Source of the DNA: an uncultured Clostridiaceae bacterium
Lineage (GTDB): Bacteria; Bacillota; Clostridia; TANB77; CAG-508
NCBI GenBank assembly: GCA_946493085.1
Contig: CAMMAC010000001.1
Span: 2,593-66,592, forward strand
Direction of reading: 5' to 3'
DNA: 64,000 nucleotides
The number at the start of each line of letters is the position of its first letter. Within the stretch, counting starts at the first letter, position 1. This document shows, piece by piece, positions 2,966 to 55,709 of this stretch. Position numbers and translations under genes: made by a program. Below the pieces are notes generated by a model. That model saw only the letters and a program-made list of their open reading frames with translations, had not been told where the DNA came from and searched no databases.

Positions 2966-3000
2966 AAAAAAGTCAATAATTGAATTATTGGCTTTTTTAT
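2966..3000 (+). terminator. Intrinsic terminator downstream of tuf
   Basis: Hairpin AGTCAATAA...TTATTGGCT followed by TTTTTT. Confidence 0.6.
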
Positions 3001-3174
3001 TTTATAATTTTTAATTTTCTTATCAATAGTAAAAGTTATTATTATTTTTACATGACGACATAGGAAATGTCACTAAAGTTCACTCTCTTTTTGAGAAAAA
3101 ACACTTGTGTTAAAGCTGAGAATATGATATAAATAGTACAAGTGATAGGTCACAACAGAAAGGGTGAACTTTCT

Positions 3175-3918
3175 ATGAATGAAAATGAAGAAAATAAAAA
3201 AGTAGTATTAATTGTAGATGATGAGCAAACCATCGTTGATATGCTTCGTTATAATTTGGAAAAAGAAGGATATAAAACATTGGAAGCAAATGATGGAGAA
3301 AAAGCTGTGGAAATTGCTTTGAATCAAAAACCAAATTTAGTTTTATTAGATATAATGCTACCCAAAATGGATGGTTTGGCTGTGTGTAAAAGAATTCGTC
3401 AAACTTTAAATATTCCTATACTAATGATATCTGCTAAAGATGAGGAAATAGATAAAATATTAGGTTTAGAATTAGGAGCAGATGATTACATTACGAAACC
3501 TTTTAGCGTAAGAGAACTCATAGCAAGAGTAAAGGCCAACTTACGTAAAGCCGAAATTACTGCAAAAGCAGAGAAGGACCAAAAAGAAGAAGGAAAGCAA
3601 GAGGGGACAAAAGCAAACACTATTGTAGTGGGAGATTTAAGTTTAGATCTAAATAGATTTGAGGTAAAAGTAAGAGGAGAAATAATCGATTTAACATTAA
3701 GAGAATTTGAAGTATTAAAATATTTAGCAAATCAACCAGGACAAGTAGTAACGAGAGAAGTATTACTAGAAAAAGTATGGGGATACGAATATTATGGAGA
3801 TATAAGAACAGTAGATGTAACAGTTAGAAGAATAAGAGAAAAAATAGAAAAAGATACGTCTAATCCTAAAATTTTAATTACAAAAAGAGGCGTTGGTTAT
3901 TATATAGCTTCCAAATAA
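3175..3918 (+). CDS. OmpR-family response regulator (receiver plus winged-helix domain, long KE-rich linker)
   Basis: VLIVDDEQTIVDMLRYNLEKEGY receiver motif; C-terminal Trans_reg_C-like LTLREFEVLKYLANQPGQVVTRE...RRIREKIE. The start was moved to the ATG at 3175, which has the RBS AAAGGGTG. Confidence 0.9.
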   Translation: MNENEENKKVVLIVDDEQTIVDMLRYNLEKEGYKTLEANDGEKAVEIALNQKPNLVLLDIMLPKMDGLAVCKRIRQTLNIPILMISAKDEEIDKILGLELGADDYITKPFSVRELIARVKANLRKAEITAKAEKDQKEEGKQEGTKANTIVVGDLSLDLNRFEVKVRGEIIDLTLREFEVLKYLANQPGQVVTREVLLEKVWGYEYYGDIRTVDVTVRRIREKIEKDTSNPKILITKRGVGYYIASK

Positions 3919-46862: not shown

Positions 46863-48608
46863 ATGATGCAAAAACAAAAGAATAAACAAAAAGGTATTAC
46901 ATTAATTGCATTAGTTGTAACAATTATCGTTTTAATTATACTAGCGGGGGTATCCATTAACATGTTAGTAGGAGATAATGGAATTATAACACAAGCACAG
47001 ATAGCAAAAGAAGAAACTGAACAAACACGCAAGGAGGAATTACAAGAATTAGCAACTTTAGAAACAGCTCTAGAAGAAGCTTCTGGGAATATTTATGTTA
47101 AAGAAGAAGGTGTAAATAAACCAAGGTTGACTACTGGAATGACACCAATTAAATTTATAGATCCCACAGATACAACTAAAGGAAGTGTTGTTATAACTAC
47201 AAGTGAGGATAAAGATTGGTATCAGTATGATGAAAAGAAATGGGCAAATGCCCAAACGGAAGATGGAAGCATGTGGGTATGGATACCAAGGTTTGCATAT
47301 AGAGTAAATGAGAGTACTAAAACTTTTGATGTTGTATTTTTAATAGGAACAACAGATACGTATTATGATAGAAATGGGCAAATACAAACAGCAAAACGTT
47401 GTACGAGTGAAGATGAATTAGTAGATACAAGCACAGGCTATACCGTGCATCCAGCCTTTACAGATGAAACAGACATCAACTTTAGAAACGGAGGATGGGA
47501 TAAAGAAATAACAGGTATATGGGTAGCTAAATTTGAGGCAGGCTATGCTAGTGGAAATAATGGTGCAGAAGTAGTAGCAAGTAGCGTGAACTATAGTCAA
47601 AGTAATGCATGGATAAGAAGTATAGAATTACATGGAAACACTACAACAGGCGATGGAAATGGAAATGCAAGAAACTGGTTAGATGGCATCTATGAAAGTA
47701 CAACAACAGCCATTAAATACCCTGTATTTCAACCAACAACCTATGGTATGAATTATATTAATATAAATGATGCTTATAATATAGCAAAAGTATTAACAGA
47801 GAATGGAAATATCTATGGCTTTAATGGAGCAGCAGACAGCCACTTAATGAAAAATAGTGAATGGGGAGCTTGTGCCTATCTATCCAAGAGTCAATATGGA
47901 TTAAATACAATAGACATAGCTATAAATAATATAACTTTAAATAGTGGAGCAAAACAAAGAACAGAAGCAGCAGGGCAAAATGAGGTAGATAGCGTATATG
48001 CAGTAACAGGCTGTACTACGGGAAATACAACAGGAGAAAAACAAACAACCATAGAAAATATCAATGCAACAACAGGGAATACGGCACTAGATGGAGTATA
48101 TACGTGGGATCAGTTAAATGGAATAAAAGCAAGTTGTACAGGAACTATTTATGGGATATATGATTTAAGTGGAGGTTTAGTGGAAAGAACAACAGGATAC
48201 GTAGCAAATGGAAAAAAAGAATTAAAAAATTATGGAGCATCTTTTACTTATGAAGATGATGTTTTAAAAACAGTTAGTACCAAATATGCAACTGTATATA
48301 TAAATAATAACACAACAGATAATGCTAGTGTAACGGATACACAAGAGCATTTAAATATAGCAAGTACGAATAACTGGCTAGCAAATAAATTAATCTATGG
48401 CGATGCCATCCGAGAGACATCTACACAAGGAACTGGCAATAATTCATGGTATGAAGATGACTCTTACTTCCCAGGACTTTACTATCCGTTTACTATCCGC
48501 GGCGGAAGTTTCAGAGGTATGGATGGACCTGGTCTATTTAATTTCAGCCGTACTAATGCTCCTAGCCATTATGGAGATGGATTTCGTGCAGTTGTAATTG
48601 TGTCGTAA
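46863..48608 (+). CDS. Variable-family protein, copy I (intact, 581 aa): pilin-like anchor plus short conserved module, large unique extracellular region, C-terminus with an FGE/C-type-lectin-like signature
   Basis: N-terminal MMQKQKNKQKGITLIALVVTIIVLIILAGVSINMLVGDNGIITQAQIAKEE. The C-terminal ...GLYYPFTIRGGSFRGMDGPGLFNFSRTNAPSHYGDGFRAVVIVS resembles the RGGSW...GFR ending of FGE-sulfatase / CLec-fold domains. Confidence 0.75.
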   Translation: MMQKQKNKQKGITLIALVVTIIVLIILAGVSINMLVGDNGIITQAQIAKEETEQTRKEELQELATLETALEEASGNIYVKEEGVNKPRLTTGMTPIKFIDPTDTTKGSVVITTSEDKDWYQYDEKKWANAQTEDGSMWVWIPRFAYRVNESTKTFDVVFLIGTTDTYYDRNGQIQTAKRCTSEDELVDTSTGYTVHPAFTDETDINFRNGGWDKEITGIWVAKFEAGYASGNNGAEVVASSVNYSQSNAWIRSIELHGNTTTGDGNGNARNWLDGIYESTTTAIKYPVFQPTTYGMNYININDAYNIAKVLTENGNIYGFNGAADSHLMKNSEWGACAYLSKSQYGLNTIDIAINNITLNSGAKQRTEAAGQNEVDSVYAVTGCTTGNTTGEKQTTIENINATTGNTALDGVYTWDQLNGIKASCTGTIYGIYDLSGGLVERTTGYVANGKKELKNYGASFTYEDDVLKTVSTKYATVYINNNTTDNASVTDTQEHLNIASTNNWLANKLIYGDAIRETSTQGTGNNSWYEDDSYFPGLYYPFTIRGGSFRGMDGPGLFNFSRTNAPSHYGDGFRAVVIVS

Positions 48609-49791: not shown

Positions 49792-51081
49792 ATGAAAGAG
49801 AATACAATTCCGACATGGAGAAGACTAGATAATTCCGCAAAAATTTTTCCTGTTTCTACAGGAAAACGATATAGTACCGTTTTTCGTATATCGGCTGTTA
49901 TGAAAGAAACCATACAACCTTATCTATTAAAAAAGGCAGTAAAACAAGCTTTAAAACGATTTCATGATTTTAAGGTGAAAATGAAACAAGGTGTGTTTTG
50001 GTATTATTTTGAGGAGAACAACAAAGAGATACATGTAGAAGAAGAGAAAAATTATCCATGCAAGTATATAGAACCGTATACCAATCAGGATTATTTATTT
50101 AAAGTAACGTATTTTGATAAAAAAATCAATATGGATGTGAACCATGCCCTAACAGATGGAAATAATGCAACTAACTTTTTTAAAGAAATTATCTACTGTT
50201 ATATAGAGCTAGCTCATAAAAAGGAATTTACCAAGGAATATAGAACCAAGAGAACTTATCGTTATAATACAGAAGATAGTTATATGGTGAATTATGATAA
50301 ACACGCGGGAAATAATAATTCTAGCCAAAAGGCATATGTATTAAAGGGAGAAAATATTCCATTAGGAGCAATTGCCGTCATTCATGAAATTATAGGATTA
50401 GAAGCATTAAAGAAAAAATGTGAAGAATGGGACTGTAGCATTACACAATACTTAACAGCAACCTTAATACAAGCTATTTATGAAGAAAATTATTTGCCCA
50501 ATAAAGGGAAAAAGCCAATTAAAGTATGCATACCAGTAAACTTAAAAAAATACTTTCATTCAGATACTTTAAGCAATTTCTTTTCCTATATTACCTTAGA
50601 AGCTAATATGCGAGAAGATAATTTAGATACTTTTGAAAAAATTTTAGCATTTGTAAAAGAAGATTTTCAAAAAAGATTAACAGAAGAAGAAATTTTAAAA
50701 ACAATGTCTGGAAATGTAAAATTAGGAACCAATCCATTAGTAAAAATAATTCCACTATTCTTAAAGAAAATACTAGTAAGAGTAGCATACTTGGAAATAC
50801 GAAAATATACAACCATCACCTTTTCTAACATTGGTAGAATTGGTATGATAGGAAAATATCAAGACTATATAGAGGAATTTCTATTTTTAATAGCGCCAGA
50901 TCCTGTAGAAAAAATAAAGTGTTCTGCATGCACATTTAATAACGAATTAGTATTTACCTTTACTACTATTTTAAATGATGCGAGCATAGAAAAAAAATTT
51001 TATGAATTGATACAAAAACAAAATATTCCAATTCGAATAGAAAGTAATGGTGTTTTAGATGTTATATCCGAAAAAAATTGA
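49792..51081 (+). CDS. Uncharacterised acyltransferase with HxxxDG motif (condensation / CAT-like superfamily)
   Basis: VNHALTDG motif at about residue 120. The size (429 aa) and position of the motif fit WS/DGAT- or alcohol-acetyltransferase-like enzymes. Confidence 0.5.
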   Translation: MKENTIPTWRRLDNSAKIFPVSTGKRYSTVFRISAVMKETIQPYLLKKAVKQALKRFHDFKVKMKQGVFWYYFEENNKEIHVEEEKNYPCKYIEPYTNQDYLFKVTYFDKKINMDVNHALTDGNNATNFFKEIIYCYIELAHKKEFTKEYRTKRTYRYNTEDSYMVNYDKHAGNNNSSQKAYVLKGENIPLGAIAVIHEIIGLEALKKKCEEWDCSITQYLTATLIQAIYEENYLPNKGKKPIKVCIPVNLKKYFHSDTLSNFFSYITLEANMREDNLDTFEKILAFVKEDFQKRLTEEEILKTMSGNVKLGTNPLVKIIPLFLKKILVRVAYLEIRKYTTITFSNIGRIGMIGKYQDYIEEFLFLIAPDPVEKIKCSACTFNNELVFTFTTILNDASIEKKFYELIQKQNIPIRIESNGVLDVISEKN

Positions 51082-51622
51082 TGCCAAAAAAGGTGGTAAA
51101 TTAGTTAAAATATTACTAATATTATCGGCTTGTTTAGGTATTCTGTTAATATTCATTAATAAAATAACAACACCTCATATGCATTGGGGAATTTTAGCAG
51201 TAGCTTGTATTGTGTATATTTGGGTAACCATATTATATGCTTTAAAGAAAAATAAAAATATAGCAGCACATATATTAGTGCAAGTAGTGGCAATTTCTCT
51301 GCTATTAATTGCTATAGATTATTCATTAGGATTTAGAAAATGGTCTTTAGAGGTGTCAATGCCTATCATTATTATTACAGCCAATCTTATTATGACCCTT
51401 CTAACTTTTATTAGTTATAAAAAATATATTCGTTATGTAGTGTATCAACTTATTTTAATACTGATTAGTATGACACCGATGCTATTGATTACAGAACATT
51501 ACATTGCAGATAGCTTACTTTCTAGAATTGCTATTTGGATATCCATAGTCAATTTTATCCTTTGTGTGGCACTATGTAGCAAGGATATAAAAGCAGAACT
51601 AAAGAGGAAATTTCATATGTAG
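51059..51622 (+). CDS. Hypothetical polytopic membrane protein (about 5 TM)
   Basis: Overlaps the upstream acyltransferase gene, so the two are probably translationally coupled. A terminator hairpin follows at 51635-51665. Confidence 0.55.
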   Translation: MLYPKKIDAKKGGKLVKILLILSACLGILLIFINKITTPHMHWGILAVACIVYIWVTILYALKKNKNIAAHILVQVVAISLLLIAIDYSLGFRKWSLEVSMPIIIITANLIMTLLTFISYKKYIRYVVYQLILILISMTPMLLITEHYIADSLLSRIAIWISIVNFILCVALCSKDIKAELKRKFHM

Positions 51623-51847
51623 ATAATGAAAATAGGAGAAAATCCATATTTCAGATTTTCTCTTTAATTAATGACTAACATAGTATAAAAACTATGGACA
51701 CTAATGTTTTATTAATCTAATTATAAACTATTCTATAAGTAAAAGGCAATAAGAAAATTGGAATAAATTAGAAACTTTTAAGACATTTTCTTATATTACT
51801 TACATAACATATATAATATTTTCTATAAAAGTAAAAAAATGTAAGAA

Positions 51848-51890
51848 TATATTGGAATTTATTGACAATATTTCCAATATATAGTATAAA
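51848..51890 (+). promoter_or_regulatory. Promoter TTGACA(51862-51867)-17-TATAAA(51885-51890) embedded in a 10-bp inverted repeat (TATATTGGAA...TTCCAATATA): a putative operator
   Basis: The arms at 51848-51857 and 51872-51881 are perfect reverse complements that bracket the -35 element. Confidence 0.6.
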
Positions 51891-51955
51891 TATATATACT
51901 ATAATTTTATAGATGACAAATGCGAATGTGTGCTGTTTCATATAGGAGGTATAAT

Positions 51956-52408
51956 ATGAGCAAATTATTTAAGGTATTTGTGACATTCTGTATGGTGACT
52001 GCTTTGGCAATCGGGGGATCCGTTCCCGCCATGGCTGCCGAAGGTGAGGCAACTAACACAGCACTGGAAGCTGTTTCTACGACTAAAATGGAGAGCCGGG
52101 CTGGAGCTCAGGTTGGCGGTATGTCTGGAACTTGTACCATTAAACCTGGATCCGTTATTGGAACGTGCTATGTTGGTACGGGGGCAAAAACTATTGAGGT
52201 TACCATTACTGGCGTAAGTGGATTTATTATTCTCCAGTTTGATAACCTGACTACTGGTGACCGTGTAAATTTGACAGCCGTTGGTGGACAAAAGGATTAT
52301 TCTCTCACGTATGCTTCCGCGTTGGATTCCGGCGATTGGCGGTGCTCCGTCTTGTCGTGTGCAAACAACGCATCGAATTGTAGTTTTGATATCGACTTTT
52401 ACAGATAA
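51956..52408 (+). CDS. Small secreted Cys-rich protein (150 aa; signal peptide, 6 Cys) with anomalously high GC (about 50%)
   Basis: Signal peptide MSKLFKVFVTFCMVTALAIGGSVPAMA/AEGE. RBS TAGGAGGT. Codon usage is rich in G/C at third positions, unlike the flanking genes. Confidence 0.65.
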   Translation: MSKLFKVFVTFCMVTALAIGGSVPAMAAEGEATNTALEAVSTTKMESRAGAQVGGMSGTCTIKPGSVIGTCYVGTGAKTIEVTITGVSGFIILQFDNLTTGDRVNLTAVGGQKDYSLTYASALDSGDWRCSVLSCANNASNCSFDIDFYR

Positions 52409-52490
52409 TATCGGTAAAAATCAGAACGGAGGTCAAAAGACCTTAGCAAGTAGGTAGTAATCGTTTTTTACACATTCGCATTTTAGCTGG

Positions 52491-52522
52491 GGGGAAGTTC
52501 AAATTAGAACTTCCCTTTATAT
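52491..52522 (+). terminator. Intrinsic terminator after the small secreted protein gene
   Basis: GGGGAAGTTCaaattaGAACTTCCCTTTATAT. Confidence 0.7.
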
Positions 52523-52633
52523 AATATAAGTAATCAACAATAAAACAAACTAACCTTTTAGATTTTTGTTTATATTTAACTATAAAGTTATTTGGATGGA
52601 AAACGATTTATATTATAATTAGGAGAAAAATAT

Positions 52634-54919
52634 ATGAAAATAGAAACAAAATTAACCTTTAATAATATGAAAAAAAATATAAAAAGAACAATATATACTA
52701 CAATTTCAATAGCGTTATGTGCATTTCTTATCATAACAACACTTTTGGTAACAACTAGTATTAGTAATAGTCTTAATGAAAATATTTCTAGTAAATATAA
52801 TGACTATCATTTTGTAATAAGAAATGTAGATTTGGACAGTTTTAATAAAATAAAAGATAAAGAATATATTGCTCAAATTTATTTACAAGAAAATGATGAG
52901 GGGCAATTATATGAAATAGATAATTTACCTGCTTCTTTTCAAATTACTAATGGGATAAATATATATATTAAATATGATAATTACAAAAAAGTTTGTACAT
53001 ATACAAATAATATATTTGAAACCTTAAATCTAACATACGTTGAGGCAAATAAAAAATGTGAATTAAACACTAGATTACTAAATTCCTGTGGGCTAATCGA
53101 TGTATCTATCAATGCAAAACAATATGTAGACAATGTTCCAATATGTCAAGTTAGATTAAACTTTACATACAGTTTAGATGTAATGATTATAATTATATTA
53201 TTAATCTTCTCCATTTTATCCATTATAATATTATATAATGCGTTTTTAATAACTATGAATGAAAGAAAAAAAGAATATGCAGTATTAAATAGTATAGGGG
53301 CAACAGAAAGTCAAATATTAAAGATGACTTTTTTAGAAAATACTATTATAGGAATAATAGGAATAATGATAGGATTTTTCATTTCCATTCTTGGTTCATA
53401 TCTTCTATTAAGAGTGTTAAATCATATAGCAGATTCCACGATATACAATTTTAAATTAATATTAGATATTAAATATATAATTGTATCCTTTGTGATAATA
53501 ATGATGAATATATATATATCTTCATTAATTTCTAGTATAAGAGCAAATAGCACATCAGTTATACAAGGAATAAAAAATAACAAACAAATAAAATTAAAAA
53601 AAAATAATTCTATTTTTGAAAAATATCTTCCTATAGAAGGAAAATTAGCTTTTAAAAATTTTAAAAGAAATAAAAATAAATATAGAATTATAACAATTTT
53701 ACTTATAATATGTATGACTTCGTATATAACAATTTCTACCTATATCAACTATGAAAAAGTAGCTGCAAATTTAATAGATGAATATGATGTTGATGCTGAA
53801 TTACAACTTAGTGAAAATTCAAATAAATATTATAAATCCATACTGGATAACTATGTTAATACTTCAGGGGATAAAATGGAGTATTTAGAATATAAGGTAA
53901 TGGGATTATATGCTCTAGTAGAACCAGAAGATGCTCTTATAGCAGAATGTAGATATGGGGACGTAATGCACTTTCCAATACAAATAATTGGCTTAGATGA
54001 TAAATCTTATAATGGTTATATAACTGATTTAAATGCTAATTATGGAGATTATATTATTTATAATAATCTTACACAAGTAGAAAGAGAAGGGGAAGAATAT
54101 ATATATAAATATTATACTGCATTTAAAGCAAATTATAATTTTAATTTAAAAATAGCTTATTGTAATTATAGTAATAATAGTGAAGCGGTAGAATATGAAA
54201 TAATTGATGATGAAACTTTAAGAGAAAAATTTACTTTAACCAAAGAGCTTCCTAATGGATATAAAGAAGTAAATAATACAGAGAAAATAACAATTTTTAC
54301 AAATATGGACACATTTAATCATATAGAAGAAAAAATAAATATTCATCCAAAAAAAGATAGATATCAACAAAATATATGGATGCATTATGAAAATACAAGT
54401 AATAGTGGAAATTTTGTTAAAATCAAATGCGGAAATATCATTAACTTTTCAAATTATATAGAAAATATGATTCAAAAACAAAATATGGACATTTTTGTAC
54501 GTTACTATTCTTTAGAAAATAAAGAGAAAATAATTTATATGAATATTTTAGAATTAATATTACGAACTATTATTTTAACAATTATAATGATAGGAATAAT
54601 AAATTCTATAAATATAATAAATGCCAGTTTATATGAAAGAGAAGAAGAATTTAAAGCATTATCAAGATTAGGTGCTACCAAAGAAAATATGAATAAAATA
54701 CTAATATATGAAAATATTTATATGTTTATAAAAGCAACAATCATATCCATTATTTTGTCAATTCCTATTTTATATAAGATTATACAATATATGGAAAAAA
54801 CAATTATATTAGATAAATTATTAATCCCGCTTACTAATATAGGTATATTTATTTTACTACTATTTATAATATTTTTGGTTATAGCAATATATTCAACAAA
54901 ATTTATAAAAGAAGAATAA
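52634..54919 (+). CDS. FtsX-family ABC transporter permease (two FtsX modules, MacB/BceB-like), very AT-rich
   Basis: 761 aa. N-terminal TM plus a large extracellular region, repeated 4-TM FtsX-like modules. Confidence 0.75.
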   Translation: MKIETKLTFNNMKKNIKRTIYTTISIALCAFLIITTLLVTTSISNSLNENISSKYNDYHFVIRNVDLDSFNKIKDKEYIAQIYLQENDEGQLYEIDNLPASFQITNGINIYIKYDNYKKVCTYTNNIFETLNLTYVEANKKCELNTRLLNSCGLIDVSINAKQYVDNVPICQVRLNFTYSLDVMIIIILLIFSILSIIILYNAFLITMNERKKEYAVLNSIGATESQILKMTFLENTIIGIIGIMIGFFISILGSYLLLRVLNHIADSTIYNFKLILDIKYIIVSFVIIMMNIYISSLISSIRANSTSVIQGIKNNKQIKLKKNNSIFEKYLPIEGKLAFKNFKRNKNKYRIITILLIICMTSYITISTYINYEKVAANLIDEYDVDAELQLSENSNKYYKSILDNYVNTSGDKMEYLEYKVMGLYALVEPEDALIAECRYGDVMHFPIQIIGLDDKSYNGYITDLNANYGDYIIYNNLTQVEREGEEYIYKYYTAFKANYNFNLKIAYCNYSNNSEAVEYEIIDDETLREKFTLTKELPNGYKEVNNTEKITIFTNMDTFNHIEEKINIHPKKDRYQQNIWMHYENTSNSGNFVKIKCGNIINFSNYIENMIQKQNMDIFVRYYSLENKEKIIYMNILELILRTIILTIIMIGIINSINIINASLYEREEEFKALSRLGATKENMNKILIYENIYMFIKATIISIILSIPILYKIIQYMEKTIILDKLLIPLTNIGIFILLLFIIFLVIAIYSTKFIKEE

Positions 54920-54941
54920 AAATGATAGGAGAAAAATTGTA

Positions 54942-55604
54942 ATGAAAATTTTAAAGGTGGAAAATTTGAGTAAAATTTATGGAAAAGGCGATACAAAAGT
55001 GATTGCTCTAAATAACATTTCTTTTGAAGTAGAAGAAGGAGAATTTCTTGCAATAATAGGACCTTCTGGAAGTGGAAAATCAACCCTTTTGCATACAGTT
55101 GCGGGATTGGGAAAACCAACTAGTGGGAAAGTATATTTTTATGGTAAAAATATGTATGAAATGAATAAAAAAGATTTAACAATACTAAGAAGGCAAAAAA
55201 TAGGAATTATATATCAATTTTATAATTTAATTCCTACTTTAAATGTAGAAGAAAATATAACATTACCTATCGAACTAGATAAGAAAAAAATAGATAAAGT
55301 AAAGTTAGAAGAAATAATGAAATTTTTAGGTATAGATAATAGAAGAAAACATTTACCGAATGAATTATCAGGAGGCGAACAACAAAAAGTAGCAATAGGT
55401 AGAGCGTTGATGATAAATCCAAATATTATTTTAGCGGATGAACCAACTGGTAATCTGGATTCTAAATCAAGTAATGAAATTATACAATTATTAAAAAAAG
55501 CCAATAAAGAATATAATCAAACCATTATAATGATTACACATAATTTAGAAATTGCAAAATTGGCGGACCGAATTATACAAATAGAAGATGGAAAAATTAT
55601 TTGA
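54942..55604 (+). CDS. ABC transporter ATP-binding protein (MacB/LolD-like)
   Basis: Walker A GPSGSGKST, signature LSGGEQQKVAIGRAL, Walker B ILADEPTGNLD. Confidence 0.9.
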   Translation: MKILKVENLSKIYGKGDTKVIALNNISFEVEEGEFLAIIGPSGSGKSTLLHTVAGLGKPTSGKVYFYGKNMYEMNKKDLTILRRQKIGIIYQFYNLIPTLNVEENITLPIELDKKKIDKVKLEEIMKFLGIDNRRKHLPNELSGGEQQKVAIGRALMINPNIILADEPTGNLDSKSSNEIIQLLKKANKEYNQTIIMITHNLEIAKLADRIIQIEDGKII

Positions 55605-55709
55605 TTTTTTAAGATTTTCTATTTAATATAGTAATAGTTTAATGTAGAAAAATAAGATTTCTACAAGCAAACAAAAAGCAGAACTAAAAAGTATGTAGAA
55701 AGGGAAAAT

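Follow-up and report, generated by a model that had tools for sequence, protein, structure and literature searches.

A mobile small-protein and FtsX-type transporter cassette of gut Clostridia, with a probable RNA helix between the ends of the small gene's message

The cassette and its three genes

We analysed a stretch of 64,000 nucleotides (nt) from an uncultured Clostridiaceae bacterium (contig CAMMAC010000001.1; called the window hereafter), and in it a group of three genes which code for a secreted protein of 150 amino acids (aa), a permease and an ATPase of the ATP-binding cassette (ABC) type. As listed in Table 1, these genes and their signals form a cassette, which in the window sits between a host DUF6320 gene and a GH3 gene. 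The small gene is flanked by an inverted repeat, and comparison with related loci indicates that the arms of this repeat very probably pair within the messenger RNA (mRNA), bringing together the untranslated regions (UTRs) at its 5' and 3' ends.

Table 1. Features of the cassette, with coordinates within the window
Feature	Position	Strand	Basis or remark
Conserved cassette (promoter, small gene, terminator, permease gene, ATPase gene)	51804..55677	+	~3.9 kb; limits of blastn homology
Palindrome arms (51847-51857 / 51872-51882) around the -35 box	51847..51882	.	11 bp, perfect; possible operator, window lineage only
Sigma-A-type promoter, TTGACA (51862-51867), 17-nt spacer, TATAAA (51885-51890)	51862..51890	+	Sequence reading
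5'UTR arm of the putative long-range mRNA helix (AAAUGCGAAUGUGU + G)	51918..51932	+	14-bp perfect complement of 52470-52483
Shine-Dalgarno AGGAGG, 6 nt upstream of ATG	51944..51949	+	Sequence reading
Gene for the 150-aa secreted protein	51956..52408	+	Open reading frame (ORF)
Stop-codon hairpin (relatives, UUUUACAG / CUGUAAAA; window, CGGUAAAA)	52397..52419	+	RNAalifold
3'UTR arm of the putative long-range helix (U + ACACAUUCGCAUUU)	52469..52483	+	Ends a few nt 5' of the terminator stem
Intrinsic terminator hairpin (GGGAAGUUC..GAACUUCCC), weak U-tract UUUAUAUAAU	52489..52525	+	Inverted repeat, hairpin energy
Promoter-like TTCAAA-16-TATAAT overlapping loop and U-tract of the terminator	52498-52525	+	Sequence
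Gene for the 761-aa permease, FtsX/MacB type, predicted fused dimer	52634..54919	+	Pfam FtsX, two stretches
Gene for the 220-aa ABC ATPase, LolD/MacB/BceA clade	54942..55604	+	Pfam ABC_tran

When the window was compared by blastn with 17 related loci (each designated by L and a number), blocks of 79-93% identity were found at 51804/51860-52529/52614 and 52609-55652/55677, and the flanks of the cassette differed from locus to locus. At least four unrelated contexts share the order small gene, permease gene, ATPase gene. The trio of L001 (permease of 759-768 aa, ATPase of 220 aa) is flanked by VanW and PGA_cap genes; L004-L007 carry it within an element that also has an integrase, a relaxase, a NikA-like protein and DNA methylases; in L008 it adjoins PemK and an integrase. 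The cassette begins about 160 nt 3' of a tRNA gene in L001 and L011 (about 7700-7770 in L001; the L011 sequence is identical there). Such a gene is a typical insertion hotspot; the window cassette has no adjoining tRNA gene.

Two distant members of the small-protein family could be placed on contigs. In L028 (27% identity) the small gene is directly followed by the gene of a 755-aa double-FtsX permease; in L027 (25% identity) it is followed by ORFs of 99, 125, 328 and 210 aa, the last alone matching Pfam FtsX, which we read as one split permease. Because both loci carry a permease directly downstream, the linkage between small protein and permease appears to be old and conserved down to 25% identity. 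The split in L027 (1861-4239), like the 195-aa first ORF in L013 (8336-9209), may reflect a frameshift, a pseudogene or an assembly error.

The relatives of the small protein at 66-100% identity all came from metagenomes. The scan of GTDB genomes gave one contig of a metagenome-assembled genome (uncultured Clostridia bacterium) and the metagenome scan 3 loci; tblastn against plasmid and phage collections gave no match and the scan of viral contigs found none. We regard the existence of the cassette, and of the link between protein and transporter, as close to certain. The best explanation is an accessory cassette of ~3.9 kb moving horizontally among AT-rich gut Clostridia; a preliminary description of this DNA, made from the sequence alone, had likewise proposed that small gene and transporter were one acquired unit, and the conservation of the trio across unrelated, often mobile contexts bears this out.

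In two of the relatives, the genes next to the cassette code for unusual regulators. Directly upstream of it, L004 has a 246-aa protein with a transmembrane (TM) segment, a coiled coil and, at its C-terminus, a receiver domain only (2966-3706), and L028 a 228-aa protein with a Spo0A_C DNA-binding domain (417-1103); a LytTR-type quorum regulator beside the cassette was considered and rejected for both. Relative to the window, L008 (2452-2815), and also L013-L017, have ~370 extra AT-rich bases between the terminator and the permease gene.

The small protein begins with a signal peptide (residues 1-27, ..VPAMA/AEG), called by eye and from conservation rather than by a predictor, which is followed by a flexible acidic linker up to about residue 48 and by an 8-strand beta-sandwich (52-150). 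In the AlphaFold2 model the predicted local distance difference test (pLDDT) score is >90 over most of 52-150, and residues 1-47 are disordered. The preliminary description had proposed a secreted protein with a 6-Cys mature domain: the signal peptide stands but the mature protein has 5 cysteines (C60, C71, C130, C135, C142), the sixth (C12) being inside the signal peptide. Most close relatives have an extra Cys in the N-terminal extension (AAECEA), which makes an even number of six.

The family is rare. Relatives at 66-100% identity form 21 clusters at 90% identity (among 5.8 billion clustered proteins), all of them unnamed and free of Pfam domains; when 1.84 billion representatives were searched with a profile, 34 family members were obtained at the 50% identity level, again neither named nor with a Pfam domain, nearly all of 141-170 aa (outliers of 61, 112, 124 and 895 aa). 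In the dozens of members inspected, the signal peptide ends with ..PAMAAE and is followed by a variable acidic linker, the motif TN..TGD.RSFTA and a C-terminal ..FY[x]. No family was found for the small protein in Pfam or NCBIfam at E-values (E) up to 0.1, save a sub-threshold Fn3-like match, nor with PADLOC, and a sequence profile search of the PDB at E up to 1 returned nothing. Foldseek gave only weak generic matches in the PDB (E >=2e-3), namely the C-terminal domain of the C. perfringens enterotoxin, a subtilisin jellyroll, the spore-appendage subunits Ena2A/Ena3A, PirA and CBM6. The ratio of non-synonymous to synonymous divergence (dN/dS) was 0.23-0.82 for the small protein versus 0.07-0.20 for the ATPase, i.e. 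the small protein evolves faster. From its model and its conservation, it appears to be a Sec-type secreted 8-strand beta-sandwich of an unnamed family.

For the transporter, the preliminary description had recognized a 761-aa permease with two FtsX modules and an ATPase, and Pfam agreed: two FtsX stretches were detected in the former (E 4e-25) and ABC_tran in the latter (E 2e-36). The solved chains closest to the permease were YtrF, LolF, PsdB, MacB, FtsX and LolC (the match to PsdB being only at E 3e-3). Its eight hydrophobic segments follow a (1+3) x 2 pattern, i.e. a TM segment, an extracytoplasmic domain and three TM segments, twice over, with outside domains at about residues 41-182 and 371-637 (~140 and ~265 aa); because of this arrangement we take the permease to be, on its predicted topology, a fused dimer of MacB type. 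The best NCBIfam match of the ATPase was LolD (238 bits, under the cut-off of the model), and the DarD, DevA, FtsE and MacB models were also among the best matches; its membership is at the superfamily level only since no equivalog cut-off was reached. The closest PDB structures were LolD, BceA, PsdA and YtrE.

These are the attributes of type VII (MacB/FtsX-superfamily) ABC transporters such as MacB, LolCDE, FtsEX, BceAB/PsdAB and YtrEF: FtsX-type TM domains, each with a preceding TM helix and an extracytoplasmic domain, and an ATPase of the LolD/MacB/BceA clade. The present system differs from them in that a single fused chain of 761 aa holds both permease halves, their outside domains being unequal, in that the cassette is without a MacA-like adaptor or a BceRS-like two-component system, in the position of the permease gene 5' of the ATPase gene, and in its genetic tie to a small secreted protein. 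A resistance module of the BceAB type, with a 10-TM permease and one large outside domain between TM7 and TM8, was discarded in view of the eight segments and the pair of outside domains; neither in the cassette nor beside it in the window was there a histidine kinase or an OmpR-type regulator that could form a BceRS-type partner.

Pairing between the two ends of the small-gene transcript

Perfect 11-bp inverted repeats had been described on either side of the small gene (ATGCGAATGTG, 51920-51930, and CACATTCGCAT, 52471-52481), with integration scars or long-range 5'/3' mRNA pairing as possible meanings. Both arms are present at these positions but the perfect repeat is longer, 14 bp (AAATGCGAATGTGT, 51918-51931, and ACACATTCGCATTT, 52470-52483), or 15 bp if a terminal G.U is counted, with 538 bp between the arms. 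A search of the window for further copies of the arms found none, and a repeat of at least 14 bp in the same geometry was obtained in 0.13% of 3000 random placements in the window. The 3' arm reaches 52483, with the terminator stem beginning at about 52489; from the positions of promoter and terminator, both arms would be on one transcript.

Folding calculations pointed to pairing. When RNAalifold was applied to 12 full transcripts, the long-range helix was predicted unprompted, together with the terminator and a stop-codon hairpin. The helix is also contained in the single-sequence minimum-energy fold, and the whole transcript folds better than dinucleotide shuffles (z = -3.9). The duplex energies were -19.7 (window), -20.4, -21.8 and -24.9 kcal/mol. 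No Rfam family was found in the window, apart from a chance match to NrrF (E 0.42).

The way in which the arms vary between relatives is more telling. In the L001/L009 clade (AAAUGUGAAUGUGC / GCACAUUCACAUUU) one pair changes from CG to UA and another from UA to CG, and helix position 14 is UA, UG or CG among the close relatives. Changes restricted to a single arm are mostly G.U wobbles (L004, L013, L019, L022, L018, L023), which pair in the + strand RNA only; overall, we counted ~10 G.U-type differences versus 2 of the A.C type. The distant loci have arms of their own: those of L027 (AAGUAUGUGUGU / ACACACAUACUU) differ in sequence but occupy the same positions and extend the pairing to 16 bp, and those of L028 (AAAACAAACGUGGAUGUGUC / GACACAUUUGCGUUUGUUUU) form a 20-bp helix, the three internal mismatches of which at the DNA level are all G.U. 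In both, the helix is at the same distance from the ATG and its 3' arm immediately precedes the terminator. When the arms were aligned in combination, 7 of the 15 pairs were changed on both sides and 97.4% of the cells were paired, and none of 500 shuffles reached any of the measures; sliding the structure by 1-3 columns lowered the paired fraction to 17-62%.

Two points weigh against this reading. Among the close relatives only, the helix is mostly invariant (98.2% paired) and 67 of 500 shuffles reached its covariation score, which is not significant. The combined alignment, for its part, was registered by hand on arms found as inverted repeats, a procedure that leans toward structure. In our judgement, however, the same geometry, kept with compensatory changes across a diverged gene family, argues that the pairing is under selection, and with high confidence we interpret the inverted repeat as an RNA helix between the two ends of the mRNA.

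Transcription of the small gene would start at about 51897. The promoter had been read as TTGACA-17-TATAAA in the preliminary description as well, and in all relatives its hexamers and spacing are kept, most of them with a TG-extended -10; the Shine-Dalgarno sequence is invariant or GGGAGG. The terminator hairpin (-18 kcal/mol) is conserved and its changes preserve the pairs. The TTTATATAAT tail of the TTCAAA-16-TATAAT site is kept in all relatives, and this site may be the transporter genes' own promoter. In the stop-codon hairpin, RNAalifold columns 515-522 / 534-541 are invariant in 11-12 of the 12 sequences, with no covariation and with one mismatch in the window: as a candidate conserved element it is weak.

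The promoter had also been placed inside a perfect 10-bp palindrome, taken as a sign of a dedicated repressor. The palindrome is there, but its arms are of 11 bp and flank the -35 box. It is not likely to be fortuitous: a first-order Markov model (loop 3-20) predicts ~2.6 perfect inverted repeats with arms of 10 bp or more in 64 kb, and one at a given promoter is thus unlikely by chance. The relatives keep only the right arm, which is in the promoter spacer; the left arm differs in L004, L008 and L013, and the L001 promoter has a different, imperfect palindrome. A conserved palindromic operator was therefore rejected. The half-site is not enriched elsewhere in the window and the cassette includes no gene for a regulator; a repressor peculiar to the window lineage is conceivable but unsupported. 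Over the whole window, 22 perfect inverted repeats of at least 10 bp were counted versus the ~2.6 expected; several have arms of 13-15 bp (13743, 17225, 27686, 31227, 48668) and most are terminator-like.

Base composition of the small gene and of its neighbours

The small gene is the single outlier of the window in composition. Its GC content is 0.464 and its GC content at third codon positions (GC3) 0.42; the GC content of the window is 0.31 and its 48 long ORFs average 0.320 ± 0.035 for GC and 0.193 ± 0.047 for GC3. The rise in GC is abrupt and occurs inside the repeats. The permease gene has the lowest total GC of the window (0.213), mostly as a result of its amino-acid composition, and a GC3 of 0.127, within the range of the host genes; the ATPase gene is unremarkable (GC 0.267, GC3 0.145) and also within that range. 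The transporter genes had been presented as a second compositional anomaly; by these values it is mostly a matter of amino-acid composition.

The contrast is not particular to the window. In the intact close relatives, GC3 is 0.41-0.48 for the small gene versus 0.09-0.14 for the transporter genes, and in the distant L027 it is 0.42 versus ~0.2. In pairwise comparisons, the synonymous divergence (dS) of the small gene was 0.18-0.57; the permease gene gave 0.17-0.38 and the ATPase gene 0.10-0.72. Because these ranges are comparable, the pieces of the cassette appear to have diverged together. Polarised synonymous changes from GC to AT and from AT to GC were nearly equal in number (22 versus 20 at codons with an invariant amino acid, 82 versus 72 at all third positions). 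A gene decaying toward the composition of its neighbours should show a several-fold excess of GC-to-AT changes (~6:1 by our estimate), so amelioration, i.e. a foreign gene drifting to AT, was rejected. Because the changes in the two directions are balanced and the GC3 is common to the intact close relatives, the high GC3 of the small gene is, on this comparative evidence, best seen as a maintained property.

Two results go the other way. The GC3 excess is small in L028 (0.17 versus 0.08), and shuffling of synonymous codons gave folding-energy z values from -3.3 to +0.8 (+0.45 for the window), which is mixed support for selection on the folding of the coding sequence. A third observation concerns L025 (167-814; L026 is identical): its small gene is interrupted in frame by TAG at codon 7, its helix contains a C.A mismatch and its GC3 is lower, 0.36. 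This copy may be a decaying pseudogene, which would fit selection on helix and GC3 in the intact copies; it is a single case.

A small ORF of ~50% GC in a ~30% context had been interpreted as compositionally foreign. The outlier is real but a recent foreign insert is not what the data favour, in view of the GC3 kept in close relatives, the dS like that of the neighbours and the balanced substitutions. Foreign origin and codon optimisation both fail to explain a GC3 of 0.44 beside 0.10-0.14.

Outside the cassette, two other features of the window were recorded. Immediately upstream, a 429-aa ORF without family match overlaps the gene of the DUF6320 membrane protein (187 aa) by 23 nt, the pair covering 49792-51622. 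The 581-aa protein encoded at 46863-48608 carries at its N-terminus a prepilin-type methylation motif and a hydrophobic helix, as in type IV pilins; it is far bigger than usual pilins.

Known precedents, proposed working and alternatives

Only a few experimentally studied cases are known in which a bacterial mRNA pairs its own 5'UTR with its 3'UTR (hbs, icaR, RNAIII), and in hbs and icaR the pairing was reported not to be conserved among related species (PMC7821165). In the hbs mRNA of B. subtilis, a run of 14 nt in the 5'UTR has its full complement immediately before the terminator; the two pair (-19 kcal/mol), and this pairing restricts cleavage by RNase Y, as proven with compensatory mutants (PMC5737220). 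In icaR of S. aureus, the 3' arm is an anti-Shine-Dalgarno UCCCC motif which blocks translation, and the pairing leads to RNase III cleavage and repression (PMC7821165). The small gene of the cassette shares with icaR and RNAIII/hld a self-pairing between the untranslated regions (PMC7821165) but differs from icaR, the arm of which covers the Shine-Dalgarno sequence, in leaving that sequence free.

The likeness to hbs is much closer: there is a complementary stretch of ~14 nt in the two UTRs, with the 3' arm just upstream of the terminator, a comparable energy (~-19 kcal/mol in hbs, -19.7 here), pairing borne out by compensatory changes (engineered in hbs, natural covariation here), and a short monocistronic mRNA with a strong Shine-Dalgarno sequence in both cases. 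Unlike in hbs, the helix is conserved and covarying in a protein family diverged to 25% identity, the product is an accessory protein, secreted and encoded on a mobile cassette, instead of a nucleoid protein, and the coding sequence is in addition GC3-rich within an AT-rich genome. By analogy, we see about an even prospect that the helix stabilises the mRNA.

Mature lactococcin 972 (Lcn972) is a protein of about 66 aa. Its locus, lcn972-orf2-orf3 on pBL1, has the structural gene at its head and then two genes, which code for a putative immunity ABC transporter (PMC4055356), and the protein itself is without cysteines (PMC8538875). The resemblance to the cassette is one of organization: a gene for an unmodified secreted protein comes first, then those of a large membrane protein and of an ABC ATPase, to which immunity is ascribed, and both loci are on a mobile replicon or element. 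There is no sequence relation. The small protein matches no Lactococcin_972 model (PF09683 / TIGR01653); the permease is double FtsX and matches FtsX-type models only, not those of the 7-TM TIGR01654/DUF1430 protein; the ATPase scores 197.6 bits against TIGR03608 (L_ocin_972_ABC; cut-off 254.85) and higher against LolD-type models. Membership of the lactococcin 972 family was accordingly rejected.

We propose the following working for the cassette. As read from the sequence, a strong sigma-A promoter and a consensus ribosome-binding site would yield a short transcript for a Sec-type beta-sandwich protein of ~100-120 aa. The covariation indicates that a helix of 14-20 bp forms between its 5'UTR and the stretch of 3'UTR immediately before the intrinsic terminator, closing the mRNA like a panhandle. 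If the analogy with hbs holds, this helix and the GC-rich coding sequence would shield the transcript from RNase Y/J-type decay and, with the terminator hairpin, make for a long-lived and abundant monocistronic message. The downstream genes would be expressed at a lower level, either by read-through of the weak-tailed terminator or from the overlapping promoter, and would give a type VII (MacB/Lol/Bce-like) ABC mechanotransducer made of one fused-dimer FtsX permease and two copies of the ATPase. Finally, on the strength of the linkage and of the lactococcin 972 precedent, the secreted protein may act on the cell envelope of competitors, in which case the transporter would remove it from the producer's own membrane as a means of self-protection. 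We take this to be the best explanation as a whole and give it a probability of roughly 45%.

Taken by itself, the proposal of a toxin with its immunity transporter is tentative and falls somewhat short of even odds. A competition factor with self-protection is suggested because an abundant Sec-secreted protein comes first, followed by a terminator and by a type VII ABC system, and because carriage is patchy and mobile. Set against it are the distant family members without the Cys residues, which had suggested a bacteriocin, and the result of comparing the small protein with known bacteriocins and toxins: no sequence similarity to any was found in the Pfam, NCBIfam and PDB profile searches. 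The most far-reaching form of the proposal is that the covarying panhandle and a selection-held GC3 of ~0.44, in genomes at 0.1-0.2, constitute an RNA-level expression device for a new class of Sec-secreted toxin with fused-dimer MacB-type immunity; this combination we hold to be doubtful.

The alternative that stands up best, though we consider it unlikely, is that the small protein is not a toxin but an extracellular partner, substrate or structural subunit of the ABC mechanotransducer, for instance a surface or fibre subunit linked through its flexible N-terminal linker (which has a Cys in most close relatives), or a signalling protein sensed or released by the outside domains of the permease. 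Type VII ABC systems such as FtsEX and LolCDE work on extracytoplasmic proteins and not in solute transport, and it is among such systems that the nearest relatives of the transporter are found. The disordered N-terminal extension of ~20 aa before the sandwich, the even number of six cysteines reached in most close relatives, a sortase gene directly upstream in one distant locus, and fold matches to the Ena2A/Ena3A subunits and other jellyroll assemblies would all suit a subunit of this kind. These matches are weak, however (E ~4e-3, TM-score 0.3-0.4), and profile searches detected none of the Ena, TasA or pilin families; a sortase signal is absent, the C-terminus being the conserved ..FY[x], and the Cys is missing from distant members. 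A competition factor agrees better with the patchy mobile distribution and with a terminator by which small gene and transporter are uncoupled in their level of expression.

As for the helix, it could be real and yet serve another purpose, as a site of RNase III processing or decay, or in the control of translation or termination as in icaR; we find this improbable. A perfect duplex of 14-20 bp is within the size range of RNase III substrates, and such cleavage with repression is the outcome of pairing in icaR (PMC7821165). RNAalifold moreover draws a weak hairpin with the ribosome-binding site beside the 5' arm, and the helix stacks directly on the terminator. Here, though, the arm is clear of the Shine-Dalgarno sequence, which is 12 nt further downstream, whereas the icaR arm overlaps it; the geometry (14-nt arm by the terminator, ~-20 kcal/mol) is that of hbs, where pairing protects the mRNA (PMC5737220); and the strong promoter and ribosome-binding site point to high expression rather than to repression.

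There remain the explanations at the DNA level, in which the small gene is recent foreign DNA and the repeats are integration scars, terminal repeats of a mobile element or arms of an invertible segment. Repeat-flanked invertible segments are common in gut bacteria, and the sharp GC jump inside perfect 14-bp inverted repeats around 538 bp would fit, but we judge these explanations very improbable and largely refuted already: every relative has the GC contrast and the repeats, with AT-rich UTRs, promoter and transporter at similar dS; GC3 is at equilibrium; the arm differences are compensatory or of the + strand G.U type, as expected of RNA and not of protein-bound DNA sites; all 28 related loci are collinear, none in inverted orientation; no recombinase or transposase ORF is found at 51.0-56.9 kb; and the arms show no target-site duplication by reading, besides being without other copies in the window. 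Of the two meanings first offered for the repeats, scars are hence set aside and mRNA pairing is retained.

If a helix that joins the ends of the small-gene mRNA is accepted, it would be, as far as could be found, the first phylogenetically conserved closed-loop bacterial mRNA, and the natural variants of its arms provide ready "mutant" and "compensated" alleles. A GC3 of 0.44 next to 0.10-0.14 in one cassette would be a clean case of selection at synonymous sites outside the current explanations and, if the proposed working is true, a natural setting in which to test if GC enrichment keeps messages of AT-rich Firmicutes from decay. The small-protein family of gut Clostridia, finally, is a candidate for a new type of bacteriocin with immunity, or for a new client of type VII ABC mechanotransducers.

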